Source: Octopus vulgaris (Eukaryota). From it: 64,000 nt of DNA. Shown here in pieces: positions 22,179 through 54,350 of the stretch (position 1 is the first letter of the stretch; the number at the start of each line of letters is the position of its first letter). Below the pieces are notes generated by a model that was not told the DNA's origin, did not search any database, and was given only the letters and a program-made list of their open reading frames with translations. Position numbers and translations under genes: made by a program. The stretch lies in assembly GCA_951406725.2 (NCBI GenBank), contig OX597825.1, positions 62,062,001 through 62,126,000 on the forward strand, given 5' to 3'.

Positions 22179-22304
22179 ATATATACATATAATAAATTTA
22201 GGGTGAATACTTGATAAGTGTAAGCACCTGTATACGTCAGCTAGTAGCAGAGGTGAGAGGGTGTATGTATCAAATGAAATCAAAAACAGAACACAGAGGA
22301 TATC

Positions 22305-22395
22305 GCGGTACACGTGTTTCAACCTTTATAAACGACCTATTCTTACATCATTGTATAATCGGCATAAAGGATGGTTTAAAGCTCTCTTCAGCCGC
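22305..22395 (-). ncRNA. Type I hammerhead ribozyme motif, extended stem II
   Basis: GCGG-CTGAAGA-GAGCTTTA...TAAAGGTT-GAAA-CACGTG-TA-CCGC; perfect stem I, canonical core, palindromic ACACGTGT stem III. Confidence 0.75.
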
Positions 22396-22465
22396 ATGCA
22401 ATTTTTATACCAAGGATTTCGGATTTTTCATAATGTGATGTAAATCTTTGGTATAACAATTGCAT

Positions 22466-22556
22466 GCAGCTGAAGAGAGCTTGAAACCCTCCTTTATGCC
22501 GATTATACAATGATATAAGAATAGGTCGTTTATAAAGCTTGAAACACATGTACCGC
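22466..22556 (+). ncRNA. Type I hammerhead ribozyme motif, extended stem II
   Basis: GCAG-CTGAAGA-GAGCTT...AAGCTT-GAAA-CACATG-TA-CCGC. Confidence 0.7.
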
Positions 22557-24458
22557 GATATCCTTTGTGTTCTGTTTTTGATTTCATTTGATATATATAT
22601 ATATATATATATATATATGGATACAAACATCTGTGTGTACATGTGTGTATGTTTGCATATGTATGTATACATGTACATGTGTGTGGGGTGCTTTTACTCT
22701 TGGGATTGTGCTGGTTGTAAAGTCATTGTCATACAATTCTGTATCATTCTCTAAAACTCTTCTATATAATTCTTGCCATCTAGTCACTGAAGAACAAGCA
22801 AAAACATTTAACTTACTTAGAGCAAGGTGAGTGCTAGCAACAGGAAAGGCATCCAGCCATAAAAATCTAGCACAACAAATTTTGCGTGACCTATGTATGC
22901 ATGCAAATGTGACATTATGATGATGATGGAGATGGTGTTGAGGTGAATTCAATATTATCAGGTGTGAAGCTTGTTCCCTTGTTTAATAGGTACTCAACAA
23001 GATTTACTTGAATGTGTAAAATATCACAAATAATATCTAACACTTGTACTCATCTCAGAAGTAAGTTAGAACTGCATGAAATCAGTTCTAGCTTCCTAGC
23101 ATTATTGTCAAGATACTTTACAACAGCAGGTTATATTAACAATGTGATATTATAATAGTAGATATTCAAATATTGTCCAAGTTATTGAAAATCATAATTT
23201 TGAAGAGTCAGTATCCAAATATTCCAAATATTCCTCGCTGCAGAGGTTGTTAGCTTAAGGAGTCACTCATCCATTGCTTCTAGTAAACACTGAGCTATTC
23301 TACTGCAGGTCACTATTCTACTGCATGGACACAGAATCTTTGTGAGCTCACACAATCTAGTGTTAGAATTTAATATAGGAATATGAGACAATTATAGAAT
23401 ATTCCATACTTCACAAACAATGCTACATCCTACTATTATCTTGCTATTGTTAAAACTCTCTCATGAGACAGAAGATACAGGTTTGGCTGTATGGTGTGGC
23501 TGTATGCTTCCCAACCACATGGTTCCAAGTTCAGTCCCACTGTGTGACACCTTGTTCAAGTGTTTTCTACGATAGCCTTGGGTCAATCAAAACCTTGCGA
23601 TTGGATTTGGTTGATGGAAACTGAAAGAAGCTTGTCTTACATTTTTTCTTTTAATTGTTTCAGTCATTTGACTGTCGCCATGCTGGAGCACCACCTTTCA
23701 TCGAGCAAATCGACCCCAGGACTTGTTCTTTGTAAGCCTAGTACTTATTCTATTGGTCTCTCTTGCTGAACCACTAAGTGACAGGGACGTAAACACACCA
23801 GCATCGGTTGTTAAGTGATATTGGGGGGACAAACATACACACACACACACGTATATATATACACGATGGGCTTCTTTCAGTTTCCATCTACCAAATCCAC
23901 TCACAAGACTTTGGTCAGCCCGAGGCTATAGTAGAAGACACTTGCCCAAGATGCCACACAGTGGGACTGAACCCGGAACCATGTTGTTTGTAAGCAAGCT
24001 ATTTACCACACAACAACTCTTGCACCTATATATATATATATTTATGTGTGTGTGTGTGTGTATTTCTGTCTGTGTTTGTCCCCCACTAACACTTGACAAC
24101 TGATGTTGGTGTATTTGCATCCCCTGTGACCTAGCAGTTTGGCAAAAGAGATCAATAGAATAAGTACTAGGCTTAGAAAATTAATACTGGGTTCGAGTAA
24201 TTTGACTAAAAATGCCACAATCTAATGATTGAAACAAGTAAGAAATAAAAGGTAATGGTTAATATGTATTATAACATATACTTACAGTAGGGCTCACAAA
24301 TTGGGGGTAAACAGAAGAGAGTGTGTGTGTGGTGACCCTAGGAGGATGATAAATGGTAAGTAAGAGGAGGGATTGGAAGAGTATGGCAGAGAATAGGGTA
24401 GAGGATAAGGATAAGTGAAATGAGAGAGACTTGAAAAGGGGATGTATTCTTGGATATA

Positions 24459-24910
24459 TGAGGGGGGGTGTGTGCTAAAAAAGCTCTGGGTTATAGAAAT
24501 ATAGGAGGATCAGTTAATTATGATTTTATTCAACATATTCCCCTCTCAGATTCACACACTCATTGCAGTGGCCCTTCAGATTTTCTGCACCCTGTAAAAG
24601 AACTCAGAAGGTTGGGCCTCCAACTAGGCCTTTCATGACACCCTTAAAGCCAGAAACTTTTCAGTACCCCCTCATGTGTGTGTGTGTGTGTGTGAGGGAG
24701 TGCTGAAAAGTTCCTTGCTTTGGGTAAGGGAAAATACAGGTGGATCAGTTTATTATGATTTTATTCAATGTATTCCTCTCTCGGATTCACACATTTATTG
24801 CAGTAGTCTTTTCTGTCTGTGTTTGTTCCCCACAAATGCTTGGAGTTGGGCCTCCAGCCAAGCTTTTTGTGATACCCTTAAAACCAGGAACTTTTCAGCA
24901 CGCCTTCATA
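24459..24910. mobile_element. Two tandem mariner-derived MITEs (24459-24676, 24693-24910)
   Basis: TIR-like GAGGG..GTGCTGAAAAGTTCC / GGAACTTTTCAGCAC.CCTTCATA; the two units are similar internally. Confidence 0.7.
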
Positions 24911-25558
24911 ATTATGTCAGCAGAAAGATTTGATGCTAACAGCTGTAACCATTCTTATCATAGGTCTGCTGGATCTGACATTACCTGGAGCAAAACAATA
25001 CTAAGAACAGCAACATCAACAACATCATCATCATCGTCGTCGTCGACGTTTAACGTCCGCTTTCCATGCTAGCATGGGTTGGATGATTTGACTGAGGTCT
25101 GGCGAACCAGATGGCTGCACCAGACTCCAATCTGATCTGGCAGAGTTTCTACAGCTGGATGCCCTTCCTAATGCCAACCCCTCTGAGAGTGTAGTGGGTG
25201 TTTTTACGTGCCACCGGCACGAGGACCAGTTAGGTGGTACTGGCAATGACCATGTTCAAATGGTGCTTTTTATGTGCCACCTGCATAGGAGCCAGTCCAG
25301 CGGCACTGGCAACGACCTCGCTTGAATGTTTTTTCACTTGCCACCAGCACAAGTGCTAGTAAGCCAACGCAGGTAACAATCACACTCTAATGGTATTTTT
25401 ACATGCCATCGGCACAGAGGTCAGCTTGTTGCTCAGGCAACGATCTCACTTGTATGGTACTCTTAGTGCTCCATATTAAGTTGCAGTCATATATGCATGA
25501 ACATTTGTTTTCATAACGCTCGTTACTGATTACAAAATAAATAATACTTTAAAATATA

Positions 25559-25947
25559 CTAGCAGTATTGCCCGGTGTTGCTCTAGTTTGTTTCGACCCT
25601 TTAGAATTGGAATTTTTGAAAAGTAAAAGTTTTGCATTATGTATCTTGTTATTCTCTTTAATTTAACATTTTTCTGGTTGAAATACACCGAAAAATGGCG
25701 ACACAGCAGTCAAAAGATCGTAAAAAATAGGGATTTTCATAGAAAAAAGCACCTTTTCGATGTAAATAATTTTTGGTGTTAACATGGTCCAATTTGAATT
25801 TTTTCTTCTACGGAAGGAGGAGCAAGCCTTCTTCTATGATACTCTCAATTTTGGTCAACTTGTGCCGCAGGGTCTTAGAGGAGATAGTGTTAGTTGAAGG
25901 CTACCAAACCTGTTATACCCAGACAACTTCAGCTTTATATATAGAGA
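25559..25947 (-). mobile_element. Non-autonomous Helitron
   Basis: Minus strand starts TCTCTATATATAAAG and ends ...GAGCAACACCGGGCAATACTGCTAG followed by T: 5'-TC, degenerate subterminal hairpin, 3'-CTAG, no TSD. Confidence 0.8.
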
Positions 25948-28150
25948 AATATACAAAAAATAAAAAGAAGCAATTTCACTTTGATTAATGTAATTTCGGC
26001 AAACTAGAATGGAAACTAAGAAGTGTTTACACATTTACGGACAAACTAATATATTAGTAAACAGAAAAGTAATCCGGTAATTATAATTTATTATGCCCCC
26101 CACAAATGCTACTGCATATATTAATGCTGCAGTTTTATGTCCCCACTTGACAGTATGATATTGAAATATGTGGTAAAGTAATGTGATCGTTAAATAAAAG
26201 CTTGTATTAAGATAAACAAGTCAATGAAAGTTGTGTATTTATGAGGAAACAGTAATGATATATTTATTATAGTTTCCTATTACGGCATTGACAGTTCGGC
26301 TTAAATACCCAGAGCGATTATTTTAGTATTTGATACTCTTATAGTGTTATGAAATAAATTTAAAGCATCAAATAATTGTGTTCAAATTTTAATTACCTAC
26401 ATTATTAAGTTAATTAACAACCTAATCTCCTGTCATTCTGTATTGTATGTAATATAATACTCAAAGCAGCTCTGTTATTGCTTGTCAAAATTAAAACAGT
26501 ATCTCAAAACAATTGTATTTATGTGTATATAATGTGAAGAAATTATTAGAAAATCACCAGGGTTACTCTTAGTGGGGGATTAGCATCATATACAAGTGAA
26601 AAAAACATAAACATAGGAGGATAACATGTGTTAGTGACTTGTAAGTACAAAATGTAGATGTCACATTATACTTGAGATTACCCTGTGCTCTAGTAAATAC
26701 AGTGGTTATTATATACTAACTGACCACGTGCCATCAATAATGATAGCTAATTGTAATATTTTATATATAAATAATGTACAAAATAAGGTACATAATCACA
26801 CATACAGACATTCACATACATCCTTTATATACATACACACATATACTCATACAGAGTTGAAACATTGTTTTTTTTCACCCCTTCTTTCCTTACTCATCTA
26901 TCACCCTTCCTTTCTCTCATTGCTATTACTTACTCTCAATCCCTCTCAGTCAGAGCTGTTACTCTCACTACTTTTCCTTCACTGAATTACTATTTTCTCT
27001 CCTCCTCCACATCCGGTGTGATTCTGGACAATATATATATATATATATATACATATACAAATAAAAAAAAAACACTACTCTCATTATTATATTAGGAGAT
27101 ACTATTCTGTAAGATGACAAACTGGCAGAATCATTAGCATGCCAGGCAAAACGCTTAGTGGTTTTTCATCCATCTTTACATTCAGAGACAAAATTCTGCT
27201 AAGGTCTACTTTACCTTTCATCCTTCAAGGGTTGATAAAATACATACCAGTCAAGTATTGGGGTCAATGGAATCGACTTGCCACTTCCTTGAAATTGCTG
27301 GCCTTGTGCCAAAATTTGAAATAAATATCAGAGTGGCAGATTGGTGGAACTGTTGGTGTGTTAGTCAAAAAACCTTGTTGTGTCCTTTTACATTTTGAGT
27401 TCAAATCCTGCTGAGAGTAATGTTACTTTTCCTCCTTTCTGGCTTGATAAAAGAAAGCACCACTCAGTTTTATTGACTATACTCTGCCTTATATCTATGT
27501 TTGAAATCAATAGTATCTGTTAATTCCCTTTGGACTTCACAGAACAAAAGAAAACATTTCTTTTTTTCCTTTCTTAATATGAAATATACTAAGAAGTGTC
27601 AACCATCTTAACAAACCAATTTATTTTTATATGAAACAAAACAATCTAAACTGACATTTCCTGGGTGGAAAATAATTCATATCAGACATTTACATGAAAA
27701 CATAAAAATTCATTATTTAAGGTTTATATGAGGTATATTTGTTGTGCTAAAAGATTTATGATGCGAAATTGTGTGTTGAAACATACATTGTTATATTTTC
27801 ATAGAGTCATTCTGATAAATAAACCTGATGCCACGAAAAAGCACCCAGCACACACTAAAATGGTTGGTGTTAGGAAGGGCATCTAGCTGTAGAAACTATG
27901 CCAAATCAGATAGGAGTCTGGTGTAGCTTCCCAGCTTCCCAGCTTCCCAGCTCTGGTCAAACCATCCAACCAATGGCAGCATGGCCAACAGAATTTAATT
28001 GATGATGATCATGATGATAATAACATGCATTGTTGAAGTTGCAGAAAGATGACATCGAGAAGGCCACAACTTTGACCTATAATTCAGTAATAAATAAATA
28101 AATCTATTTATTCAAATTAATTAACTCATTAATTAACAAGAAATGAACAA

Positions 28151-28505
28151 TTAGGTTATCTGGTAAGTTCTGAGCGTTTTTAAACTAAATCTTTTAACGC
28201 TTCAATGAATACACCTGAAATGTAACAGAGTTAAAAAATTTTGGCATTGCTTGAAGTGGTAGTGCATGTATTCTTTGTTCCTGACTAAAAATAGATTAAT
28301 CTTTCATTCCAGTCACCCATTATTGACATTTGAAATGGAAAATTTCATATTCGCGTTGTAATGCTTTTCTTTTTTTGACAAAAGGAGAAAATGCTGCAAA
28401 GACTTGCAAAAACAGTTGTGAAGTTCATGGTGATAATGCTGTAGGTGAGTCAACAGTTCAAAGGTGGTTTTCAAAATTTAAAGTTGTAGTGCTTAGCTTG
28501 GAAGA
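28151..28505 (+). mobile_element. Mariner transposon 5' fragment
   Basis: TIR-like TTAGGTTATC start; KGENAAKTCKNSCEVHGDNAVGESTVQRWFSKFK...SLED is the mariner HTH N-terminus. Confidence 0.85.
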
Positions 28506-28526
28506 TAATAGTCACAGTGTTGCCTT

Positions 28527-28568
28527 CACTATGTTTCAGCTGTTGTATGCTCCAGCCTTCTTCAGGTG
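28527..28568 (-). ncRNA. Minimal type I hammerhead motif
   Basis: CAC-CTGAAGA-A-GGCTG-gagcatacaa-CAGCT-GAAA-CA-TA-GTG; stems I and II pair and the core is canonical. Confidence 0.65.
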
Positions 28569-28659
28569 TCTTTTGTCAAAATTTATCCTGTTTACACCAG
28601 GTGTTCATGAACTGTACTTTTAGGAACTTCCAACTTCTCTGCAAGTTGGAAGTTTCTAA

Positions 28660-29332
28660 AAGTGATATTTGAGTTTTCTTCAATTTTTGCTTTCAAAACA
28701 TCTTCATCCAATTTTGAAGGTCTCCCACTCAACTGCACTCCATGCATAATAATCAAGGGGGTTGGAGTCTAGGGAGTTCAGTGGCCAGATATTAGGAGTG
28801 ATGTAATTACAGAAATTGTCTGACAGCCATGACTGAGTTCTCCTACTTATATACCATGGTGCAGAGTCCTGTTGTCAGACACAGGGTCTTCCAACAGCCA
28901 ACCTCTTGACACAAGGTAGCATTACTTCCCCCAGGCACATGATGTAGGCCTGTGTTGAGTGTGAGGCTGTGTGGGGGAGAGGAATGGAGGCATTATGTTA
29001 CCATCACTAATGATCACTTCAACCACCATGATGTTAACTGGGTGTTTGATTCTTATCTTTCTCAGTACATGACCTCAGAATGCACTGTCCTCAGATTGAC
29101 ACCCAAACACTCTGATATGTTTGTATTGGAGTTTCTGTCATAAATGCTAAGCAGCACAGCATGGTGTTTCCAAATTTCTGGCAGAGTGAATTGCATCATG
29201 ATGCTGTTTTTCTCATAACAGTGCCCAACTGACTCTACTATACTGAGTAGTTGACAAAATCAAAAACAAACAAAGCACATTTGCAAAATTAAAAATATAA
29301 AATGGCGACAATTGACGCGCTGCAGTCCGTGT
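28660..29332 (-). mobile_element. Tc1/maT-like transposon, internally deleted and decayed
   Basis: QQDSAPWY.SRRTQSWLSDNF...NIWPLNSLDSNPLDYYAWSAVE (cf. QQDxAPxH and WPPNSPDLNPLDY). Confidence 0.85.
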
Positions 29333-29343
29333 GTATATATATA

Positions 29344-29394
<51 letters not shown>

Positions 29395-29821
29395 TTTTAT
29401 TCTTTTACTTGTTTCAGTCATTTGACTGTGGCCATACTGAAGCCCCACTTTAAAGGGTATTTTTTAGACAAAGCACTCAACCTCAGGAAGTAAACCTTGT
29501 AAGCCTAGTACTTATTCTATCAGTGTCTTTTGTTTAACCACTAAGTTATGGGGATGTAAACACACCAACATTGGTTGGTGGACAAACCCAGACACAAAGA
29601 CACACACATATAAATATATACACACACACACACATACAAGATGGGCTTCTTTCAATCTCCATCTACCAAATCCACTCACAAAGTTTTTGGTTGTTCTGAG
29701 GCTATAGTAGAAGACACCCAAGGTACCACACAGTAGGATTGAACCCAGAACTATGTGGTTGGAAAGCAAGTGTCTTACCACACACCCGCACCTATATATA
29801 CACACATATATACATATAATA

Positions 29822-29890
29822 ATAACACTAAACCTAGGATGAAATTTATGTATTAAATATTTATAAACTTCATCCTAGAATTATTGTTAT
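29822..29890. repeat. Short foldback palindrome
   Basis: CTAGGATGAA.TTTAT / ATAAA.TTCATCCTAG. Confidence 0.75.
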
Positions 29891-29996
29891 CATATATATC
29901 CTACATTATATTAGTATAACCCTGATGCAACCCTGAAAAACTGACTTACAAGTCAGTATCATTAAACTGTAGCCCGCATAATGAAATAAGGGTTTT

Positions 29997-30096
29997 ATTT
30001 GTATACCCCTAACATTACCATAAACGAATTTAAAAGGTAAATATATATATATATATATATATCTTTTAAATTCGTTTATGGTAACATTAGGGGTAT

Positions 30097-30102
<6 letters not shown>
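29997..30102. repeat. Inverted repeat centred on (TA)n
   Basis: ATTTGTATACCCCTAA..TTACCATAAACGAATTTAAAAG and its reverse complement. Confidence 0.9.
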
Positions 30103-30134
<32 letters not shown>

Positions 30135-30886
30135 GTATATACACATGTACATATATACATATATATATATATACACACACACACATATATTTATTTATTT
30201 AAAGGGCACAATAGATGTCTTTAAGTATTACTAATAGTTTCATATGTTGGGAAATGCTCATACATAGTCTTCGGGCACAAACCACATATCATAAGGAAGT
30301 AAAAAATGTGTATAATAGAAGAAATGCAAAAAAACAAAAAAAAAAAAAACTGAGAAGGCAGCATATAGAAAAGGAAGAAAGTAAAAAGATGGAAATGATA
30401 AACAGAAAACGAAAACTCAAAAACTAAAATGTAAGAAGTAAAAAATAAAAAGATAAGAGAACTATTCTCCTTAGACCTTACATATATATGTATATATGTA
30501 TGTATGCATGTATGCATTACATATCCTCCTCTACTCTAGGCACAAGGCCTGAAATTTTAAGGGAGAGGGGCCAGTCAATTAGATCGACCCCAGTACACAA
30601 CTGGTATTTGATTTATCAACTCTGAGAGGATGAAAGCAAAGTCGACCTCGGCAGAACTTGAACTCAGAGCACGAAGATAGATGAAATACCACTAAGCATT
30701 TCGCCCAGTGTGCTAACATTCCTCCCAGCTCACCGCCTTGTATGTATTACGTATCACTCTCATTATGAATGACAATATGATACTGGTAGATATTTATAGA
30801 GGGAGAGGTAGATAATGCAGCTACTCATTATGGTTTTACTGGTTTCACATTTAAGGTTGTGGCCATACTGGGGCATTGCCTTCAAT

Positions 30887-30919
<33 letters not shown>

Positions 30920-31371
30920 TGTTTAAAGTCCGCTTTCCATGCTAGCATGGGTTGGACGATTTGACTGAGGTCTGGCTAACCAGATGATTAGAAGACAAAA
31001 ATCAACCCAGGTAGAATCCGAATTCAGAGCATTTAAAGGACCAACCAAATAACACAAGGCATTTTGCCCTATATTCTACAAATTCTGACATCCATCATTC
31101 ACAAATACAATAAAAACAGAGTTTAGATTTTTAATATTAAAATAAAATGATACTTTAATATTTGTCTTACTACTTACAAATTTTTTTTTCTTATTTAAAG
31201 AGAAAATGTTGTTAAACTATTATTGATTTTTTTTCAGGGAGAGAAATAAATTAGATAATTATTTCACCAGTTATATAAATTGTGTGTGCGAATGTTGAAA
31301 CCTTTATAAATAAACATATTACATTTAAAAAAACATATACATACATACATACATAATGCATATATATATAC

Positions 31372-31417
<46 letters not shown>

Positions 31418-31442
31418 TACTTAATATCAAATCACATATTTA

Positions 31443-31477
<35 letters not shown>

Positions 31478-32516
31478 TACTTAATATCAAATCACATATT
31501 TACTTTATAGATATTTTATGTAAGTTTGTAAATTATAGCTGCTAACAAGCAACCAGACAGAATCAAGTTATATAAAGAATTTGTTAGAGCAACAGATTTG
31601 CAGTAAATATGCTGCCAACAATCAATTTGTCCATTTAATACTTTGGAATCAATAAAACAAGAACCAATATCGTAGTGTCGAAAAGATTGGCCCAGAAACT
31701 AAAATCCAGTTAAAAGTCGCGATATTAAACACAAACACACGCAAGACACACGCGTCTTACTTTTGACTTACATTACTAGTAAGGATTAAAGATGAATTAT
31801 GACACTAAACTATCTTTGTATCATCATAAAACACTTGTGTAGGGTTATTCTATAGGAAATTTTATTGAAAACAATAAAGATACTAGTTATAAGAAATAAA
31901 GGTAGAAAGCTGTCGCTGTTTAGAACATAATGACAATATGAAGAGCAAAGAAGACTACTAAAATCCTAGAATAAAGTGAGGTACAAATATGTTTATTGAG
32001 GTTTCTGTTTGATAAATGACACAAGTTAAATTGAGAATCTCTCAGCTCTATACAGTTTAAAATTCTTCAAAGGCAGCTGACAGTGTATGTGGCTTCTCAG
32101 ATGTTATAAGGTGATTAAAATCGATGTTAGTCTAGTTTTCTTGGATAGTCTAGCCTATTATAATGATGTCATAGAAGAATTGATAGTAAGAACATTTTAC
32201 CGAAATTGTTTACTGAGACAAGTATCGTTATAAGCAATATACAGTTATTGATATGTGATTTCACTTGAAAGAGCATTTTTGCGAGCTAAATCCTTATTAT
32301 AATGGCGTTTGTGAATGTGTGTGTGTATGTGTGTATGTGTGTGTGTGTGTGTGTGTGTGTACATGTGTATGCCAGTCTGCTTGTAACCAAATGCTTGCTA
32401 GCTGTTCATTCTTCCTCCCATCTTTGACACCCTGACTAAGTATCTCATATCTCATGCTGCTTCATAAATCAACCACTTCTCTTAAGGAAAGAAATAGAAA
32501 GTGTAAGAGACATACA

Positions 32517-32517
<1 letters not shown>

Positions 32518-32558
<41 letters not shown>

Positions 32559-32905
32559 GAAAAAGGGGTGGAGAGGTAGAGAGGCTTGGGAGAGGCACAG
32601 AGGGGAGAAAGAGGGAGAGGAGCAGGAAAGACATAGGGGAGTGAGAGAGGGGATAAAGGGGAGGTAGAAGAGAGGGGAAGTGGAAGGAGAAGGTAGAAAG
32701 ACAGAAGGAGACAGAGAAGGGAGAGAGAGGAGAAGGTGAGAGGGGAGTGAGTTAGAGAAAGGGAAAGAGAGAGGGGAAGAAGAGTAAGGGAAGGGAGAGT
32801 GGTGGAGGGAGAGAAATGGGAAGGATAAAGTGAGAGAGAGATAGAGGGAGGGCAGACAAAAGAGGATAAATAGAGGGAGAGAGAAAGAGAAGATAAAGAA
32901 AGAAG
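32518..32905 (+). repeat. Polypurine (GA-rich) tract
   Basis: About 390 bp of almost pure purine sequence. Confidence 0.9.
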
Positions 32906-38861: not shown

Positions 38862-39928
38862 GCGTGTGTGTGTGTGTGTGTAAGCATCACTGTAAATTTA
38901 TCTGTGTGTCTGTGTTTGTATTTACATGTGTATGTGTCTATATGTGTGTTTGTGTGTTTATGAGTATTCATATGTGCCTTTATATTTCCATATATGTGTG
39001 TGGCTGTGTGTGTCTTTGTGTTTGATCTTAGACAACTTGACAACATGTGTTGGTTTGTTTACATCCTGTAACTAAGCAATTTGGCAGACGGAGACCAAAT
39101 GAATAAGTACCAGACTTCAAACAAACCAGAGTTCAACTAAATTCCTCAAGTCGATGCCCCAAAACATCTTCTGTTCAATGACTGAGACAGATAAAAAAAA
39201 TAATACAGTAAAGAATACACACACAACATGATCAAACAGTTAAGAAGTTTGCTTTGCCATCAGTAGGTTTCAGGTTCAATTCCATAGCTTGACATCTTGA
39301 GCAAGTTTTTTTTTACTATATATAGTCACGGGTAAAGCAAAGACTTGTGGGTGAAATTGGGTTTATGGAAGCGATATGAAACCTCTTGGATGTATTATGC
39401 TTGATTTTAAGATGCTTAAATTTGTCACATACTGTGTTACATTAAGTCTGCTGGTAGATCATATTAGGGTGCATGTATCTGTGGAATACACAAACACTTG
39501 CATTACAGTTTTAACAAGAGAAAACAGCATCGAACACACCTGTTGAGGAGGGCCAGAATTGATTTTTCTAAGTATGTGATATTCATCATCATCATCATTG
39601 TTGTTTAACATCAGCTCTTCATGCTGGCATAGATTGGATGCCAGAAGGCTGCACCAGGTTCCACAAAGATATAAGCAAAAGCTGAATGCTCATACGTTGT
39701 CTTTGATGGGAGATCAAAGGTGTCAGGTAATGCTGGGAGATCAAAAGTGTCAGGTAATGCTGAGTAAGTGCTATGGATAGACCATAGTTAAGCTCCAGGT
39801 TCGGTGATTATGCAAATAAGGAGTCCAACATAGGTCATATATCAGCATGTGTATATAGAAAAATATTTTTTCACAATGACATTAAAAAAACCAAGTCTGT
39901 GAAGATTTTAGAACATTTCAAATAGAAG

Positions 39929-39976
39929 GTCTTACAGCTGTTTCTGGGATATTTTTTATAACCCTTCATCAGAGAC
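39929..39976 (-). ncRNA. Minimal type I hammerhead motif
   Basis: GTCT-CTGATGA-A-GGGTTAT-aaaaa-ATATCCC-A-GAAA-CAGCTG-TA-AGAC. Confidence 0.78.
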
Positions 39977-40001
39977 TATTGCTTAACCATTTTCCTGCAC
40001 C

Positions 40002-40049
40002 GTCTCTGATGAAGGGATATAAGAAATATCTTGGAAACAGCTGTAAGAC
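40002..40049 (+). ncRNA. Minimal type I hammerhead motif
   Basis: GTCT-CTGATGA-A-GGGATAT-aagaa-ATATCTT-G-GAAA-CAGCTG-TA-AGAC; palindromic ACAGCTGT stem III. Confidence 0.78.
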
Positions 40050-40130
40050 CTTCTTTTTATAAATGTTCTAAAATCTTCACAGCCTTGATGTTTTATCTCA
40101 TTCTGAAAAAAGAATTTCTTTTATATATAA

Positions 40131-43541: not shown

Positions 43542-43579
<38 letters not shown>

Positions 43580-43654: not shown

Positions 43655-43687
<33 letters not shown>

Positions 43688-43755
43688 GGTATCAGTAGTA
43701 GTAGTAGTTGTAGTAGTAGTAGTAGTAGTAGTAGTAAAAGTAGTAGTAGTAGTAT
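43422..43755. repeat. Compound trinucleotide microsatellite (TCG/TTA/GTA/GGT)
   Basis: Direct reading. Confidence 0.95.
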
Positions 43756-44194
43756 GCCAAAATATGTATTATTGTGTGCCAGGGTGGTGATGTAAAAACA
43801 TGGCTTTTTAACAGACAATGCAAATTGAAAGAAATATATTAAAATAAAGTAAACAACTTTGCATTTTTCGAAAATTTCCAGGTGAATACAATGAACAAGA
43901 AAAACTTGATTGTTTGTAATTTGTTAGATTTTAATTAATGTTCGGTTGCATTTATTTAATATATTTGATAACATAGTTTCGAACAGACACGGTAGACAGT
44001 CAGACAGACAAACAGACAGACATATTGTAGTTGTTCATCACAATACTTCCAATAATCTATAAGTGATAAGCTGAACTGAATGCAGCTTAGTTTGTCATTA
44101 ACCTCCTTTTAAATATATTGTTCATGTATTTGCAATTATAGCCCCCCATAGATATTTACTCATATTTGCAAGTATAACCCTCCATAGATATATA

Positions 44195-45096
44195 TTGGCT
44201 CATCCCATAAATAATGCGGTTTTTCTATACTTCTTTTATTTTTTCGAAATTAAGATAAATAAATTTCTTTTTTAATCTAAAATATACTCTCCTTCATTTT
44301 CTACAATGCCCTTCTGGTAGACTTGCAAGACCCCTCTTCCAAAATTCATTTGTCTGTGATGAAAAATACTCATCCAGTTCTGTTCTGACCATATCTACAG
44401 AATTCATAGTTCTTTGCTATCCAAATGATTTTGAAGACTGGGGAATAAATAATAATCAGATGGGGCAATGTACAGTGAATATGATGGGTAAGACATCGCT
44501 TCCTATTCTAACTGCTCCAGCCTTTTGAATGTCATTCTCATTTTATGTGGCCAAGCATTATCCTGATGGAAGAACACTTTTCATTTTGAAACCAAAGATG
44601 GTTGTTTTTTCTTCTGGCACTGGTGTCAATCAATGGTTGAATGACCAAATTCAAGCATCTCTGCTAGATACTCAACAGTTAGAATGGGATTTTGTTCCAC
44701 CAAGGTTTGCAGAAGGTCCTCGTCAAGCTCTACAGATCTTCCAGGATGAGGCTCATCTTCTAGGCTGTAGTTTCCAGCTCAGAATTTCTGGAACCACCAT
44801 TGACACTGGCTTACGATTACTGTCCAATCTCCATATACTGCATTAATATTCCTTGCACTTTCTGTTGCATTGTTGCAAAATATGCCAAATATGCTTCTTT
44901 GTCACTTCCATTATAACTTTGAAGCAATAACTGTTAATATCGTACTGCACTCTTCAAAACTTGCACTAAGAATAAGGAAAAGGGTAAAATTACTAACTAC
45001 ATTTATAGCAAGTTGATGCAGGTAGTTTATCCATTTCCTCTCCAACTTTTAGTCCATGCAACTGAAAAAAACTGCATTATTTATGGGATGACCCAA
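44195..45096 (-). mobile_element. Internally deleted mariner element with both TIRs
   Basis: TA|TTGGCTCATCCCATAAATAATGCGG ... CTGCATTATTTATGGGATGACCCAA|TA; MEVTKKHIWHIL..NATESARNINAVYGD..WFQKF..YSLEDEPHPGR and QDNAWPH..YSLYIAPSDYYLF. Confidence 0.93.
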
Positions 45097-45973
45097 TATT
45101 TGTACATTTGCAAGCATATCAATCCATAGATATTCATTTCTATATTTGCAAGGTGGTGAGCTGGCAGAAACGTTAGTGTGCCGGGCAAAATGCTTAGCAG
45201 TATTTCGTCTGCCGTTATGTTCTGAGTTCAAATTCCACCGACTTTGCCTTTCATTCTTTTGGGGTCGATAAATAAAAGTACCAGTTACGCACTGGGGTCG
45301 ATGTAATCGACTTATTCCCTTTGTCTGTCTTTGTTTGTTCTCTCTATGTTTAACCCCCTGTGAGCAATAAAGAAATATATATTTGCAAGCGTTTTCATTC
45401 AAAGATATATATTTGTGTATTCACAAATATATCCAACCATAGCTATATCTGTGTATTTGCAAGTATATCCATCCATAGATATGCAGTCATATATTTGCAA
45501 GTATATGCATCCATAGCTATATATCCATGTTACAGTTCTCTAAAGTTTGTCACAGCAAGAATCTCTCTACAATGTATTTAGATAATTATAAGGTCAATAA
45601 ATGAATGAAGTGAGTGTAGGCGTAAATCTATATTTAAGAGGTGAACTTCGCAACCATGGACTTTGTGATCAAATCGCACAACATGACATCTTGGGCAATC
45701 ATCTTTACTAAAGCTTTAGGTTGGCCAATGTTTTGTGAATTAAAATTAAAATTCTGCATGCATGTACAAGTGTGTGTGTGTGTGTGTGTTGTGTGTGAGT
45801 GTGTGTGTGTGTGTTTGAGTGTGTGTGTGTGTGAGTGTGTGTGTGAGTGTGTGAGTGTGTGAGTGTGTGTTTGTGTGTGTGTGTACAGTGAAGTGCATTA
45901 ATTCCACAAGCAGGCTGTTCTGCTGATCAAATCAGCTGGAAAACTCATTGTCTTAACTGACAGAAGGTCAGTT

Positions 45974-46062
<89 letters not shown>

Positions 46063-46071
46063 CTATGAAGC

Positions 46072-46925
46072 AACTGTCTTTGAAGACTCATATAGTCATT
46101 GAACACTCAAAATGGGGGGGTAGATAGACAGCCGACAAATGATGAAGGGTCGTTCTCTGTGTTTACTTGTCCTGTTTTGCATTTTTCTCCTGTTGTTTAC
46201 ATATTTAACTTGTTTCATATCATATTTCATGTTGTTTACACAGTTGGTGACGTCCTGTACCCATATATACACATATAAATTATTATTTAATTGAACGCCA
46301 TGCATCCATTTCCAAGTAAGTTTATCTTAACCTTTTCTATGCAATTCTACTCTTTACTGTTTTCTTCCTCCATCCTTCTCTAATTCCCTTTTTCTTTCCC
46401 TACACCATTTTCCATCTGTCTCTCTCTCTCCTCCTTCTCTTTCTCTTTTTCTCTCTCTCGTTACTCACATGTGACCATCGTCCATCTTTCTTTTTCTCAC
46501 ATGACCATCTTTCTTTTCCTGCATGGACGTTCAAAGAACTTAACGTTTTCTTTCTCTTTTCTATCTTTTCTCTTTTCAAAGAAAATATTTCTCCCAGCAT
46601 TCACCATTTCCCTCTTGTTCTGGTCTAAGACCTTCTATGTTTGTTTTCATTTGGCTTCCTCGTATGTCTCCACTATCCTGTTTTTGTTCCCAACTTTGAC
46701 CCTTCATAAATCCTAAATTTTAGTTTGGAACTTATGGGAATAACTGTCTTTGAAGACTCATATTGTCATTAAATGCTCAAAATGAGGAGTAGATAGACAG
46801 CGAAAAACTGATGAAGGGTCGTTTTCTATGTTTACTTGTCCTGTTCTCCATTTTTTCTTCGCATTGTTTGTGTATTTAACTCGTTTGTTTCGTATTTCAT
46901 GTTATTTACAGTTGGTGACGTCCTG
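46072..46925 (+). mobile_element. PLE-like tandem structure: two direct repeats of about 185 bp around a pyrimidine-rich core
   Basis: 46072-46257 and 46742-46925 are homologous; each begins CTGTCT-TTGAAGA...CTCAAAATG...AGACAG (decayed HHR-like). Confidence 0.55.
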
Positions 46926-48045
46926 AGAGAGAGAGATAGCAAGAGAGAGAGAGAGATGTAAATGTATGTTTGTGTATTTCTATATATGCATATGTATACA
47001 GTTTTTCTGTTACTATTAATTAATTGATGTTCACCAAAGAGACTCAAAGGACCAGAGTCTTGTGCACTGCCATATGAAAATGTACTTATACGTATACCTA
47101 TGGTCGATTTTCCCTGGAAGTTGCTAAGTTGACATGTGTGTTATATGTGTTTGTGTGTGCATGCATGTGTGTGTTAGTGTATGCATGCAAGCTCATGTGT
47201 ACATACAAATCTGTGTGACTGTTTATATTTCACTTATATTTCACTCATTACTACTTGAGGGAATCATTCATTACATTTGTTCTAACATTGCAACACGTTG
47301 CTATGCAATTTTGGAAAACTTGTGAAATAAAGAAAACCCCCATCTTGAAAATGTGGTAATATTTGCTGACAGTAAAGTATCTCTCCAAATTCATACACTC
47401 TGGTAGGGACACTAAACATTAACTGACATATATATGTGTGTGATATACAAAGAAGGAAACAGGAGACTAGAATTACTTCATATGGATGGCATAATGACAG
47501 TGCAAATGTTTGGTGAAGCATGAGTATTAAATATGTACATATATGATGATAACTGTTACCTGGGAAATATTTCTTATTACATGATAGCAAACGGATAATG
47601 AAATTTATAAATTATCTTTAACACTTTAGCATTCAAAGTATTCTGTCAAATGTAATGCTTATTTATTCAAATTGTTTTGAATTAATCATGCAGTAATTCA
47701 TAGCTTTGCGATTTAGATGATGGGATTGCTTAGAGATGTTGGATTTGACCAGCCTGAGCATAAAAGTTTTGTATAGAAGTGCAGGCATAGCTAGCTGTGT
47801 TGGTAAGAAGCTTGCTTCCCAACCACATGGTTTCGGATTCAGTCCCACTGTGATGAACCTTGGGCAAATGTCTTCTACTAAAGCCCCAGACCAACCAAAG
47901 CTTTGTGAGTGGATTTGGTAGACGGAAACTGAAAGAAGCCTGTCATATATATATATAGTAAGAATTTACAAAAAAACGAAAGACAAAGACAAGTGTGTAA
48001 ACAACAAACAGATGTATTAGTTTAATGCTTGGGAAGTGAGAATGT

Positions 48046-48081
48046 CTTTTACATTTTGAGCCTATGCTCTTCAGCAGAAAG
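48046..48081 (-). ncRNA. Decayed minimal hammerhead motif (same family as 59241-59276)
   Basis: CTTT-CTGCTGA-A-GAGC-atag-GCTC-AAAA-TG-TA-AAAG. Confidence 0.45.
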
Positions 48082-48091
48082 GAACACAGAA

Positions 48092-48515
48092 ATATATATA
48101 AATCACAGTATGTGTGTGTAAAATGAGTGGCGCATACATTTCCACAGTTGTTAACTGATTTTCAACAAACTTTACACACATTACTTATGTCCCACAGATG
48201 GTCATGCTCTATAACATTTTACCCAGAGCTCCTGCATAAATGGACATAGTTTTTTTTTGTGTGTAGGGTCTTCCATACATTTCATAAAAGGGAAAGGAAT
48301 TTTGTCTATTTATTTATTTTGACTGCCTATCTGCAACGGTAACACAACACGTATTATGTTTCTGGTAATTTTCTTTCCTGTAAATAAATGTTTATGTTAA
48401 TTTAAAAGATTAATCCAAAGAAATCTTATTTAGCTGTTATTTTTAGCACAACACGTAGGTGAACGTAAAGAATATGCACACCTGGTGATTAGGTTAGGGT
48501 TAGGGTTAGGGTTAT

Positions 48516-48547
<32 letters not shown>

Positions 48548-49019
48548 ATTAAGGTTAGGGTTAGACCGAAAACGGATATTCTTTACCTCCGCCCATCATA
48601 TGTTATGTCTCCAGTAATTTTCTTTCATGTAAATAAATGTTTATTAAAAAATTTGCCAGCAAAGTCTTATAAAATGGCAATGTTCCAAAAGATGTACATG
48701 CTGATATGTTATACATGAAAATAAGAGTGAAAAAAATATGCTTAAAAAACAACTATATTTTGTAGTTGTTATCCATGATCTACACCCCAAACACTTCAGT
48801 AGCTCCCCTTTGCCTCACTTGCAAGCTTACATGTTCTATGATCATTTAAGTGTAACGACCTCCACAAAAACCAGCCCTCAATTTGATTTTCCATTCCTAG
48901 GTTAATTGTAAACATAGATTGGTGTGCTACACATAAACCTTCTCAGTAGTTCAATTATTTGGTGAAAAAAATACCACCAAAGCAACTTTAACCATCCAAA
49001 GGAAGGGTGTGTTTGCTAG
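48092..49019 (+). mobile_element. Possible non-autonomous Helitron with internal insertion
   Basis: Starts ATATATATAAAT + (GT)n and ends GGGTGTGTTTGCTAG followed by T; 5'-TC not visible. Confidence 0.4.
48489..48564 (+). repeat. Interstitial telomere-like (TTAGGG)n tract
   Basis: About 12 perfect or variant TTAGGG units. Confidence 0.92.
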
Positions 49020-49678
49020 TGTATATATAAATATAGGGTAAAAAAATCATTAAATAAATAATTTATACCAGTTGTTTGCGTGGGTATAGAGTTAACTGAG
49101 ATTTTTATTCATTCGAGTATCCTGCTTGCTTACAAGCAACATGCAATAAGTAAGAATGTTTTTTCATGGTTTGGATTTTGACTGCCCTCTCTAGCATGGT
49201 GGTCGCCTCTCTGCGTATAAATTCTTATACAGTATTAAATACACCGTACCCCTTTCACTTTTTTCTTTATATGTATAGGTGCAGGAGTGGCTGTGTAGTA
49301 AGTAGCTTGCTTACCAACGACATGGTCTCAGGTTCAGTCCCACTGCATGGCACCTTGGGCAAGTGTCTTCTACTATAGTCTCTGGCCAACCAAAGCCTTA
49401 TGAGTGGATTTGGTAGATGGAAAATGAAAGAAGCCCATCGTATATGTATATATATATATATCTGTATGTGTGTGTGTCTGTTTGTCTCCCCAGCATCACT
49501 TGACAGTTGATGCTGGTATTTTCATGTCACTGTAACTTAGTGGTTCGGCAAAAGAGACCAACGGAATAAGTACTAGGCTTACAAAGAACAAACTCTGGGG
49601 TCGATTTGCTCAACTATAAAGGCAGTGCTCCAGCATGGCCACAGTCAAATGACTAAAACAAGTAAAAGAGTAATAGAG

Positions 49679-49744
<66 letters not shown>

Positions 49745-50139
49745 CATGTCAATATTTGTCCCTCCCACCATCCCTTGATAACTGATGTTGGTGTGTGTAT
49801 GTCCCATTAACTTAGCAGTTTGGCAAAAGAGACCAAAAGAACAAGTACTAAGCTTACAAAAAATAAATCCTGGGGTCCATTTCTTCAACTAAAACCCTTT
49901 GAGGTAATGCTCCAGCATGGCTGAAGTCAAATGACAAACAAATAAAAGAATAAAAGAAGCAGAATATTTTGGCCAAAGAAGTTAATTCTTGAACTGTTGT
50001 TGCTTTGCAATTTTAGTAATTGCTTTTATTCCTTCTTTCTTACATGTTTCAGTCATTGGACAGCAATTATGGTGGAACCCTGCCATGGCAGGTTTGGTTG
50101 ATCATATCAATCTCAGTACTAATTATATTCATCTCTATG

Positions 50140-50904
50140 AGGAGAACCACTAAGCCAGAGGATGAGGGAACCTGTGGAAGAGGTAGACCCAAGAAGACCT
50201 GGGATGAGGTGGTGAAGTATGACCCTCAAACATTGGGCCTCACCGAGGCAATGACTCGTGACTGGGACCTTTGGAAATATGCTGTGCTTGAAAAGACTCA
50301 GCAAGCGCAAGTGAGACCATAATCTTGTGGCCTATGCCAGGGGTGTAACCAGTCCACTTATTCATACCTTTCCTTCATTGGACACTAAACTCTGCTTGTG
50401 AAGACCTGTTGAGGCAAGTGAAATCGAAATCAAATTTGATGACTGGCATCTGTGCTTGTGCAGTGCTAAGAGTACAATATGAGCGAGATCATTGCCAGAC
50501 AACAAGCAGGCCTCTGTGCCGAAGGCATGTAAAAAACACCATTCGAGCGTGATCGTTACCTGCGTCACCTTACTGGTACTTGTGCTGGTGGCACATGAAA
50601 AAACATTCGAGCAAGGTCGTTGCCAGTGCCACTGGACTGGCTCCTGTGCAGGTGGCACATAAAATGCACCAGTTGAGCGTGGCTGTTGCCAGTACTGCCT
50701 GACTGGCCCTCATGCCGGTGGCATGTAAAAGCACCCAGTACACTCTCAGAGTGGTTGGCGTCAGGAAGGGCATCCAGCTGTAGAAACTCTACCAGATCAG
50801 TTTGGAGTCTGGTGCAGCCATCTGGTTCGCCAGACTTCAGTCAAATCCTCCAACCCATGCTAGCATGGAAAGCGGACGTTAAACAATGATGATGATGATG
50901 ATGA
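50140..50904 (+). mobile_element. RTE-clade LINE 3' end with full 3' UTR
   Basis: EGTCGRGRPKKTWDEVVKYD..LGLTEAMTRDWDLWK is the RTE C-terminal motif; repeated GGTGGCAC.TAAAA units in the UTR; (GAT)n tail. Confidence 0.9.
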
Positions 50905-53639
50905 TAGACTAGTTTTTATGCTGGTCTAAACAAGAAAACACACTCAGGCATGTACACATGTCCGTACATACATATTATGAGCTTCCATACAGCATTTTTC
51001 TAGCCCAGGTTGTTGAGACCATAGCAGAAGACATGCTAGAAATAACAGTTTAATCCCTCTCAAATCAAACCCTTTCACCGTAAAAAAAAAGGATATATTT
51101 GACAAGGTGGAGCGAGTACACTATGTATATATCTAGTCTGAAAAAGTAGAGGACTGCCCAGGCAATATATAATGTGTTTAAACCATCAATAGGCAAAAAT
51201 TGGAGTTTCTTATTTTCTTTAGCCAATTTACTTGTTTGTTTACTCGAGTAATTATGGTTACGTAGTTATTTTATGAGAACAATTAAAACAAAAATTTATT
51301 TTGTTTTCTCATTGTTTGACAACTTTACTTACGAGTATGAAGGAGTGGTGTTGCAAGATGCCGTTAGATACCATTTTCAGTATTTAAGCAGTACTGTTAA
51401 ACATAGTTTTTATGTCTTTTCCAATCACAGTATGTGATTGGGTCATATAAAAGTTTGAACTTCTGACAACACATCATGTAGACCAATTCATTATCATTTG
51501 TTCATTGCAGTTTTTAAATAATGGCATTATGAATAGTAACTATCTACTGGTTAATACTAACACTGTGTTGTGTTGTTTGATATATTTCTCTATGTTAGAC
51601 TTGGTTAAAATTTATCTATGTTTTCACAATTGTTCTATCAGGATATAAGAAAACTATTAAATGTGTATATGTGAGATATTTTTAGCTTGCTTCTGATATC
51701 CAAACAATATAACCATGTACGCCAATTGTGTTAACACCATGCGTAATTTTTTTTCTTTGTTTCTGTGATTTTCTTTCTTTGCTTTATTATTATTATTATT
51801 TTTTTCCTTTTTTTTTTTATTTCTGAAATCAATTCATCAAGATTTTATCAAAGAATCATTTGTATTTTACTAGAGTCGAGTGTGATTAGTAATTATCTCT
51901 TACTGGCTGTGATAGAACAATGAATAAATGGAAACCAGAACACATAGATCATCAAAAATTGATTTTCTACTGTAGCTATTAGATATAGCTATAAATTGAG
52001 AACAAAATAAAAGTAATGTTTAAAAATCAAGAAACTTAAATTCTAATTTCAAACCACAGCAACAAGTCAATCCAAATGCTTTAAATTGTTTTCTTTTAGT
52101 TTAGAAGCAATAATTTTGTTATTTATTTATTTATGTATTTTTTGTATCAGCAGATAATTAAGAATTATATATTACTATTTTATATTATATTTCTTCTTAA
52201 TTTTATTTTCAAAAAAGATTTCAGTTAAACCAAAAACATTTTTTTTTTAGATATAGTATTCTATTTTCAATGGATTTCTATGTAGTTTTTATTTTTATCA
52301 TTTTCTTTACAACCAATACAAAGCTTTTTTCAAAGACAGAATTATCAACATTTAAATTGAATTTTTCTATTAAACAATAATTTTTGTTGTTCAGCATGAC
52401 ACTTTGAATTCATATTTTCAGGAAATAAAACCAAAGGCAGAAAAGAATATATTGATATATTTGGACAAATGCCTAGGAATTTTGTTTTTTCTTTTTCAAA
52501 ACTACTCACACTTTATACTTTTGATATAAGCAATAATATTTCTCAATCTAATGAAATATTTTGCCTGTTTCATTAAAGTATATATTGACAGAAAAGACCT
52601 TCCCAAAGACATAAGAGAATATTCTTATATAAAATGAAAAAAACTTAACCATAATAGTAATAAGTTTTTGATTTAGTTTAGTAGAAAGGCTAGCAATAAA
52701 AATGGTTAAAATGAACACAACAGAAGGATATGAAAACACATGAAGATTTTATTGTGTATAGAAATTACATAGTTTCCCATAAAAACTAATTATTTTATTA
52801 CAAACACTTCTTCAAAGTCTAGTAAGAAATCAATCATAGTTTTTTTGGTTTTTTTCCCTCAAATTGAAAGACAATACTGATTTTCATGAGTGCCTGTCTC
52901 TGATGAGTTATTACTAGCATAATTCACTGTGTAATTTCTCCTTAGTTTATTTCAATGTATAAACTGTACTGTATCTATTTTCTGGTGACGTAACCTATGA
53001 CTTGAAATAAAATTTCTCATGTTCCCTTCGCCTATTTACAGAAATCATCTTCGGAAACATCGTACACACATACATGCAAACAGACAGACAAATATATATA
53101 CATACAGGCAAACATTCATACATACATACATACATACATACATACATACGTACGTACGTACGTACGTACATACATACATACACACACAAAAATATATATA
53201 TATATACTTTTATTCTTTTATTTGTTTCAGTCATTTGATTGCGGCCATGCTGGAGCACCGCATCTAGTCAAGCAAATCGACCCCAGGATTTATTCTTTGT
53301 AAGCCTAGTACTTGTTCTATCGAAATCTTTTGCCGAATCACTAAGTTACGGAGACGTAAACACACCAGCATCGGTTGTCAAGCGATGGTGGGAGGACAAA
53401 CACACACACACATACACACACAGTTTCCGTCTACCAAATACATTTACAAAACTTTGGTTGATTTGAGGCTATAGTAGAAGACACTTGCCTAAAGTGCCAT
53501 GCAGTGGGACTGAACCTGGAACCATGTGGTTGGTAAGCAAGTTACTTACCTCACAGCCACTCCTTATATATTTTCATAAATCATCTTGTGATGCACTTAG
53601 ACATATCATCGGAGAGATTTTTCCTAGAGATCTTTAGGT

Positions 53640-54050
53640 GTTTTGGGCCTTTCAACAAACAATCACCCTCATCCAGGCAACCAAATCAGGAACAATGTTA
53701 GACCAGTTTGTGTCAAATTAGTACTATCCCAAATAGAACTACCCCTTCCAGGGGTCACACTACCTGATCCATAGCTTTCTGCCTCCATAGCCCACTTGAT
53801 GGTCTTCTCGCATTATTGTCGGTCTTATAGAGGGAGTGACTCGTAAGCGCTCTGCATTCCACCTCACAAGGATATCAGCTTGCTCACAACTTATTTTCAT
53901 GGTATAACATCACCAGCTTCACATATACATATTCCTTTTTTTATGTTTTCAGGCATGTGGTCATGCTGGAGTCCACTATGTCTTTGTACCTTTCCCACAG
54001 CCTACTTATACGATTGATTACTTCTGAGAGATGGGATATTAGATCACCAA
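53640..54050 (-). mobile_element. Decayed RTE-like ORF fragment
   Basis: SEVINRISR..W and distal W.xIV.D peptides resemble the post-RT region of RTE elements; many stops. Confidence 0.35.
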
Positions 54051-54054
54051 TCTT

Positions 54055-54350
54055 GCATGTTCTGTTGTATCTGGGGTCATGTTTTTTGTGCCTTATAATG
54101 TAACACACTCACTGGTAAAATTTCCACTTATTTCTTATTTTTATTTTCCTAAAATTTTCGTTGCGTCTTGCAACCTTTTCAATAGTCTTGACTCTCAAGA
54201 CTATTGTTAAGACTATTGAAAAGGTTGCAAGACCAACGAAAATTTTAGGAAAATATAAAAATAAAAAAGAAGTGGAAATTTTATCGGTGAGTGTGTTATA
54301 TTATAAGGAACAAAAAGAAAATGACTCTCCCCAGACACAACAGAATATGC
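54055..54350. mobile_element. Foldback element with two divergent variant hammerhead motifs
   Basis: Inverted arms of about 135 bp; HHR-like motifs at 54149-54185 (-) and 54213-54248 (+). Confidence 0.88.
54149..54185 (-). ncRNA. Hammerhead variant with U3-A8 core
   Basis: CTA-TTGAAAA-G-GTTGC-aagac-GCAAC-GAAA-AT-TT-TAG; palindromic AATT stem III. Confidence 0.55.

Follow-up and report, generated by a model that had tools for sequence, protein, structure and literature searches.

Are foldback repeats that carry a hammerhead ribozyme on each arm a mobile class of their own, or are they traces left by the insertion of other elements? A stretch of 64,000 nucleotides from Octopus vulgaris (assembly GCA_951406725.2, contig OX597825.1, positions 62,062,001 to 62,126,000 of the forward strand; hereafter the window) raises this question three times. 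A first-pass annotation had marked palindromes at 22268-22593 (E1), 39856-40124 (E2) and 54055-54350 (E3), described them as unrelated in sequence, and proposed that they are derivatives of Penelope-like elements (PLEs) without open reading frames (ORFs) that form a non-autonomous, ribozyme-bearing class. We confirmed inverted repeats at all three places and traced each to a different PLE family. Each palindrome is very probably one decayed PLE insertion, made of two 5'-truncated ribozyme-bearing ends lying head to head and likely built anew at every landing. The material for this view is a set of high-copy families linked to GIY-YIG ORFs, paired tailed and short ends, unique centres, target-site duplications of about 12 bp in E3, and variants of a common donor on both arms. 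The double-hammerhead foldback architecture has been described before as something that PLE insertion leaves behind, and it is not a new mobile class.

The outward-facing type-I hammerheads ascribed to both arms were recovered in E1, E2 and E3, six motifs in all with one per arm (Table 1). Five of the six passed a type-I descriptor, while the right arm of E1 failed both descriptors used, with an A.C mismatch in stem I and a stem III that is no longer palindromic. A palindromic stem III, claimed for every arm, is present in the left arm of E1 (6 nt) and in E3 (2 nt) and has decayed in the right arm of E1. With a relaxed descriptor the window had four matches, compared with a mean of 0.23 across 30 dinucleotide shuffles, none of which held a divergent hammerhead pair; the match at 52273-52348 is probably due to chance. 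The motifs are not uniform: 64 nt separate the core halves in E1, a purine mismatch closes stem II in E2, and E3 is a U3-A8 variant with a stem III of 2 nt. In the E2 family the core is mostly C4. Family-majority letters yielded a hammerhead motif for E1, E2 and E3 alike, with the core, stems I and II and a palindromic stem III. An Rfam scan of the window returned 132 matches at E<=1, none of them to a hammerhead family; the matches over the foldback stumps were to microRNA (miRNA) models and lay under the cut-off.

If the palindromes are derived from PLEs, their arms should lead to PLE ORFs. A first look gave 1,322, 3,007 and 3,017 candidate relatives of E1, E2 and E3, respectively, and exact matches numbered 397 and 2,412 for two E3 patterns (the latter a 37-mer) and 204 for an E2 pattern. 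Walking upstream co-linearly, across the simple-repeat-rich untranslated regions (UTRs) that separate ribozyme ends from ORFs, we reached an ORF with a C-terminal GIY-YIG domain in all three families. Thus, the PLE origin of the ORF-less palindromes held, as did the suggested link between arms and autonomous PLE ORFs. In the E3 family, an ORF with reverse transcriptase (RT) and GIY-YIG ends about 0.66 kb upstream, and two of four fragments matched GIY-YIG in Pfam, one of them over the cut-off (L226, PF01541, 24.5 bits, E 3e-5). For the E2 family, co-oriented endonuclease sequence lies about 1.1-1.2 kb upstream of the ribozyme at ten loci, with an RT motif region in L145; the Pfam GIY-YIG match, in one of five fragments, was under the cut-off (E 8e-4). 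By tblastn and motifs, the same co-oriented endonuclease was identified in 4 of 20 extended loci of the E1 family (L361, L363, L371 and L372, of which L371 and L372 hardly differ), and two of the four also hold a ribozyme arm with 86-87% identity to the window (L363/L172 and L372/L167). RT was recognised in the family fragments by motif and co-linearity only, and Pfam RVT_1 gave no match in the family ORF fragments. Inside the window, tblastn found no PLE protein fragments. The E3 endonuclease had no match to longer proteins at E<=0.001, which is weak evidence, and a pattern search for read-through into the E3 ORF gave no match.

The ORFs also suggest to which clades the families belong. Those of E1 and E2 have a CxCX5C linker, CxxC and CxH around conserved E and N, and the C-terminal GIY-YIG. 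By the linker, CxxC and CxH motifs together with (TA)n targets, both would be Hydra-clade elements, which replaces a Nematis-like label considered for them, following the clade motifs given in the available sections of PMC8557442. Naiad, a candidate prompted for E1 by its (TA)n targets and long stem II, was excluded, as the endonuclease is C-terminal and has Hydra motifs. In E3 a CX4CxxC linker precedes GIY-YIG, and we tentatively call the family Neptune-type by the CX2-5CxxC linker, a motif common to Nematis too.

Whether the palindromes were amplified as units was examined at their centre junctions, in two sets. Set 1 comprises loci picked by similarity, with duplicates removed (15 E1, 21 E2 and 37 E3 pairs). 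Set 2 was chosen regardless of symmetry and started from 94 of the first 100 listed among the 2,412 matches to the 37-mer, which lies downstream of the E3 ribozyme; after removal of three duplicates and two segmental-duplication copies it holds 85 E3-family insertions, with a bias towards well-kept copies, since one arm must match the 37-mer exactly. The first-pass annotation had proposed to ask whether the centre is common among copies or unique. In set 1 it was distinct in 15/15 E1 and 21/21 E2 pairs, and 32 kinds were counted among the 37 E3 pairs. An adjacent inverted arm was present in 50 of the 85 insertions of set 2, with 47 distinct junctions among the 50; both ribozymes were whole in 10 of these, one in 16 and none in 24. 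Among 30 loci of the E2 family, 11 had an adjacent inverted piece and 5 kept both ribozymes. Common ends and internal sequence among copies, as expected of a unit or of a miniature inverted-repeat transposable element (MITE), were not found. Unique junctions and the small share of double-ribozyme insertions thus mean that a palindrome is not propagated as a unit, and that truncation leaves two ribozymes in an insertion by chance.

A non-autonomous class of double-hammerhead foldbacks, transcribed and re-inserted as a unit, could account for the high copy number (the 2,412 exact matches), for the best-scoring 40 E3 relatives all matching along nearly the whole palindrome, and for one junction geometry that recurs in 6 of the 37 E3 pairs of set 1. 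However, in these six pairs the tail is on the longer arm in three and on the shorter arm in three, and variants and flanks differ. The sole triple with identical centres (L250, L253 and L255, on contig C1) stems from a segmental duplication, its copies being 96-99% alike across 2.9 kb. Just 10/85 E3 insertions and 5/30 E2 loci have both ribozymes whole, and a fourth foldback in the window has one whole ribozyme. For the E1-E3 families a unit-amplified class is therefore largely refuted, and we hold it to be very improbable.

As a separate observation at E3-family centres (L198/L199 and L053-L077), short templated fillers from the last 15 nt of the arms are often present in repeated form, which resembles iterative microhomology-primed synthesis.

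E1, E2 and E3 are asymmetric, each with a tail on one side only that extends beyond the coordinates first assigned. In set 2, one tailed end was paired with one short end in 50/50 inverted insertions, whereas lone copies were tailed in 19 cases and short in 16; by simple arithmetic, such a pairing would be expected about once in 10^15 if the ends were independent. A few E3 short ends are cut back further. The tail was on one side in 15/15 E1 pairs, and the full E2 tail stood on one side in 16/21 pairs and on both sides in none. Among the E1, E2 and E3 pairs of both junction sets we observed no two-tailed insertion. In the window, a 12-bp target duplication encloses both arms and the tail of E3. 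A flank string of at least 7 nt common to both sides was found in 40 of the 50 inverted insertions of set 2 (mode 12, some plain (TA)n); of the 35 copies that are lone or long, 13 had one. The (TA)n runs at the ends of E1 and E2 leave no readable duplication there. That is, we found variable 5' truncation with an adjacent inverted copy, a one-sided tail, and a target duplication or microsatellite target, as in insertions of endonuclease-bearing (EN+) PLEs.

The same PLE origin would also be compatible with an inverted arm made by self-priming (fold-back) of one template, for example antisense RNA, with the endonuclease setting the outer ends later. Self-priming was put forward in PMC3846280 from palindromes at inverted junctions. 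In its favour, the arms carry common donor variants, a hairpin with a 3-nt loop can be drawn for the E3 junction that recurs, and the fillers copy nearby sequence. Yet if one complementary DNA (cDNA) folded back on itself, the arms should be nested and the longer one should carry the tail; the opposite was seen in 26 of the 50 inverted E3 insertions, where the short arm reaches further 5'; the tailed arm does so in 21, and three are ties. Since either arm may reach further 5', the arms are not nested. Some overlap by only a few bases (L249 and L201). The antisense version would need loops of up to about 140 nt. Moreover, a PLE protein in vitro uses cut DNA as primer and sense RNA as template, starting at two sites that match the tail ends (PMC11167929). 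We therefore consider self-priming unlikely.

Variants on the two arms point to a common source. Non-majority letters common to both arms exceeded those in shuffled pairs three- to fourfold (52 versus 11.7, 38 versus 12.1 and 60 versus 16.5), and paired arms differ by 6-9%. Counting E3 positions from the G of the second core half, so that the ribozyme begins at -26, E3 arms were concordant at the non-CpG sites +13, +29, +59 and +62 (P from 3e-4 to 8e-9), whereas at the CpG sites -6, -1 and +45 no variant was common to both arms. Pooled E1 sites behaved alike, with P=3e-26 for non-CpG concordance and P=0.24 for CpG. Sharing at non-CpG sites without sharing at CpG sites in E1 and E3 fits one donor, followed by independent decay of the arms.

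This bears on a further possibility, that the palindromes are DNA-transposon MITEs or that their symmetry was made after insertion by DNA-level inversion or conversion. Long, terminal-looking inverted repeats and the TA-rich flanks at E1 and E2 would suit it, as would concordance at CpG sites in E2 and the more numerous common variants at short spacers, although such spacer-dependent homogenisation of arms is confounded by locus selection. A MITE identity is refuted by the ORF links, given the co-linearity with GIY-YIG ORFs. The asymmetric tails, the variable centres made of native PLE sequence, and target duplications enclosing both arms and the tail (40/50 at >=7 nt, mode 12) speak against either version, and so do arms that are 6-9% apart and the independent CpG decay in E1 and E3. 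Among the alternatives weighed here we regard this one as the least probable, with a negligible chance of being right.

The truncation points of E3 are concentrated in a wall: 45 of 135 5' ends lie in -36..-26 and 13 beyond (P=1e-15). There was no excess at the hammerhead cut site (7/59, P=0.25), the sign that in vivo cleavage might have left. A splice acceptor at the wall was excluded, as the preceding bases vary among copies and the upstream context is purine-rich. PLE transcription is known to start within the pseudo-long terminal repeat (pLTR; PMC2377424 and PMC6765202), and for this reason the wall, 10 nt before the ribozyme, is probably the pLTR transcription start. As a side observation, a G/A polymorphism at E3 site -28 (window 54211) is rarer in long copies (4/43) than at the wall (25/100).

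How two ends could come to lie head to head is suggested by in vitro work. A PLE protein, a dimer by prediction, cuts both strands of the target, extends them and uses two internal RT starts that bound the tail, and ribozyme cleavage is dispensable (PMC11167929). We lean, by a little more than even chance, towards a PLE dimer that fires both internal RT starts, each for one of the cut strands and with RNA from a single donor as template, with the E3 wall being the capped 5' end of the template before an uncut hammerhead. The protein would cut both target strands with a stagger, and two cDNAs would be primed, one from each internal RT start, on RNA of the same donor. Both cDNAs would halt early, and their ends would be joined via short microhomology or templated filler; whether an arm has a whole hammerhead would be set solely by the stopping point. 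In E3, many cDNAs would likely extend to the very 5' end of the RNA, a discrete point 10 nt ahead of the ribozyme, and stop there. Uniform, MITE-like lengths and the one junction that recurs would then arise with no amplification of units. The ribozymes would be passengers, sequestered in the long hairpin upon read-through of the locus.

Several observations weigh against a single PLE insertion as the source of each palindrome, or against parts of the proposed mechanism. The ORF link of E1 comes from two loci, which belong to a subfamily more diverged from the window (86-87%), and spans about 3 kb with secondary insertions. The long copies recovered are all broken, 5'-truncated and without an N-terminus, and the clades were assigned from motifs and not from a tree. 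In 5/21 E2 pairs the full tail is on neither side. E2 also has no wall, its ends at 30 loci being spread between +24 and at least -650, so the wall is no general feature. For E3, an untemplated cap G at the wall was not supported, with G in 5/13 and frequent only in the similarity-picked set. E2 arms are concordant at CpG sites too (pooled P=0.002), and for that reason some arm-to-arm conversion may have taken place in E2. E3 site +25 is without arm concordance (P=0.33). Site -28 is not concordant either (2 both-minor, 8 discordant, 20 both-major; P=0.34), though linked to donor variants; editing, RT error and junction repair are candidate causes of the arm difference there.

Folding predictions concern the fate of the ribozymes once a foldback is in place. 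The predicted hairpins fold at -135.5 to -229.5 kcal/mol versus -3.6 to -18.3 kcal/mol for lone hammerhead motifs, and with motifs facing outward the antisense arm comes first in a read-through transcript. Because the antisense arm is made first and the hairpin is far more stable, cleavage within read-through foldback RNA is, by these models, likely blocked, which speaks against the competition of cleavage with dsRNA formation and editing that the first-pass annotation had proposed. Cofolding gave the expected dimer for the E3 arm; E2 fell short of the full fold. If transcribed, thousands of such ready-made hairpins could feed editing of double-stranded RNA.

Table 1. Foldbacks of the window, their parts and their hammerheads (positions within the window).
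Feature	Position	Strand	Remarks
Fourth foldback	21275..21590		arms 21275-21496; one-sided tail to about 21590; absent from the first-pass annotation
Fourth foldback, left hammerhead	21312-21395	-	whole; right arm begins inside stem II
E1 inverted repeat	22264-22419/22442-22597		arms 94% complementary; arm 5' ends at -101 and -126; junction overlap 4 nt
E1 one-sided tail	22191..22267	-	3' extension of left arm; same 68-78 nt after the arm in other copies, one side only
E1 left (tailed) arm	22268..22419	-	5'-truncated end of a PLE, Hydra-type by motifs
E1 left hammerhead	22305-22395	-	type I; core halves 64 nt apart; stem III a palindrome of 6 nt; single mismatch in stem II
E1 right (short-ended) arm	22417..22593	+	25 nt further 5' than left arm; terminates in (TA)n
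E1 right hammerhead	22466-22556	+	decayed in stem I and stem III
E2 inverted repeat	about 39860-39976/40002-40124		core arms
E2 one-sided tail	39742..39859	-	about 118 nt; family contigs diverge from the window at 39742; short local duplication just to the left
E2 left (tailed) arm	39860..39976	-	contains left hammerhead
E2 left hammerhead	39929-39976	-
E2 right (short-ended) arm	39976..40124	+	5' end 28 nt longer, giving the apparent loop, which is native element sequence; terminates in (TA)n
E2 right hammerhead	40002-40049	+
E3 inverted repeat	54055-54192/54206-54350
E3 target-site duplication, left copy	54049..54060		12 bp
E3 left (short-ended) arm	54061..54195	-	5' end at the -36 wall of the family
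E3 left hammerhead	54149-54185	-	U3-A8, intact
E3 junction filler	54196..54205		10-nt copy of nearby element sequence
E3 right (tailed) arm	54206..54340	+	ATG at 54321, the predicted ORF start
E3 right hammerhead	54213-54248	+	U3-A8; 1-nt stem II deletion
E3 one-sided tail	54341..54401	+	about 60 nt; extends the predicted N-terminal frame
E3 target-site duplication, right copy	54402..54413		12 bp

The fourth foldback belongs to another hammerhead family with a long stem II. It has a whole hammerhead on its left arm only and relatives in L092, L021, L020 and L171, and no ORF link was found for it. Smaller AT-rich palindromes lie at 29996-30103, 4818-4937, 54722-54784 and 28616-28663, one of them centred on (TA)n and one with a single relative, in L146. 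The loci fetched during the analysis held, as bycatch, more than ten hammerhead families with covarying motifs (for example in L108, L092, L147 and L211). Their cores are C3-G8 or U3-A8, and their palindromic stems III measure 2-6 nt. In several families the core halves lie 53-65 nt apart, and these are overlooked by Rfam and by short-spacer descriptors. A further family of long foldbacks, which has a long-stem-II hammerhead of its own (L145 2890-3490 and L147), recurs beside E2-family copies. We also noted a young PLE family (for example L090 and L095) with a Neptune-type linker and many open frames of 781 amino acids, unrelated to E1-E3 and possibly still active. Finally, an E1-family copy at L108-L116 (small contigs C35 and C36, the start of C21, and C1) sits within a larger repeated block found at least nine times; these are therefore segmental copies and not insertions.

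The tail/short pairing, the non-nested arms, the common donor and a wall that lies off the cut site constrain directly, from genomic data, how PLEs integrate, and they bear on the points at which self-priming and target-priming models disagree. In repeat annotation, PLE stumps of this kind resemble MITEs or miRNA hairpins. The known shapes of the hammerhead are widened by those with 53-65 nt in stem II, which Rfam overlooks. Should the reading with a dimer and two RT starts be true, the head-to-head structure would be explained without an antisense template, and templates used productively in vivo would escape cutting by the ribozyme. Many of the palindromes listed as 'MITEs' in repeat libraries of animals would then be PLE stumps, some of them carrying long-stem-II hammerheads overlooked by current descriptors, and thousands of stump insertions would be a readout of the unsolved PLE integration reaction. 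A literature search with most subscription journals outside its range found no paper on obligate pairing of tailed and short ends or on a 5' wall, and none joining Penelope hairpins with MITE misannotation.

Most components of these foldbacks have counterparts in print. Minimal PLE hammerheads, their U3-A8 variant and opposite-strand pairs about 100-700 bp apart have been published (Cervera and de la Pena 2014, PMC4209133). The motifs described here are like them in being type I, with a short stem I, a palindromic stem III and the U3-A8 core variant. They differ in that the core halves lie 53-65 nt apart in E1 and the fourth family, beyond the spacer of 7-17 nt with which PMC8557442 searched for the core motif, that E2 is without the G10.1-C11.1 closing pair, and that no E1-E3 motif was found by Rfam. 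With Hydra-clade PLEs (PMC8557442), E1 and E2 have in common the CxCX5C linker, CxxC, CxH, the C-terminal GIY-YIG and (TA)n targets; unlike those, they have long simple-repeat-rich 3' UTRs, from 1.1 kb to about 3 kb.

Non-LTR retrozymes (bioRxiv 10.64898/2026.07.22.740005) are likewise short, ORF-less and PLE-derived, with a type-I hammerhead. However, they form head-to-tail tandems with same-strand ribozymes, whereas the foldbacks are head-to-head, single and not amplified as units, and a retrozyme identity was excluded on the absence of such tandems. The PAc Poseidon element in vitro (Frangieh 2024, PMC11167929) offers a biochemical likeness: two internal RT starts define the tail, both strands are cut and extended, and hammerhead cleavage is unneeded. 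In the available sections of that study the inverted copy is not modelled and no pile-up of genomic 5' ends is reported.

The inverted truncated copy, one-sided tail and target duplications of PLEs are described by Arkhipova 2013 (PMC3846280) and Craig 2021 (PMC8557442). Insertions of EN+ PLEs in these papers and in Schostak 2008 (PMC2377424) resemble the octopus foldbacks in their adjacent inverted 5'-truncated copy, tail at one end and target duplication, in a pLTR and tail that cover the first ORF codons, and in AT-rich or (TA)n targets. The octopus insertions differ in longer tails (about 60-120 nt versus 30-40) and longer target duplications (about 12 bp versus 8-10). They also differ in the length of the copies: both are only 120-240 nt here, so that the whole insertion is a palindrome.

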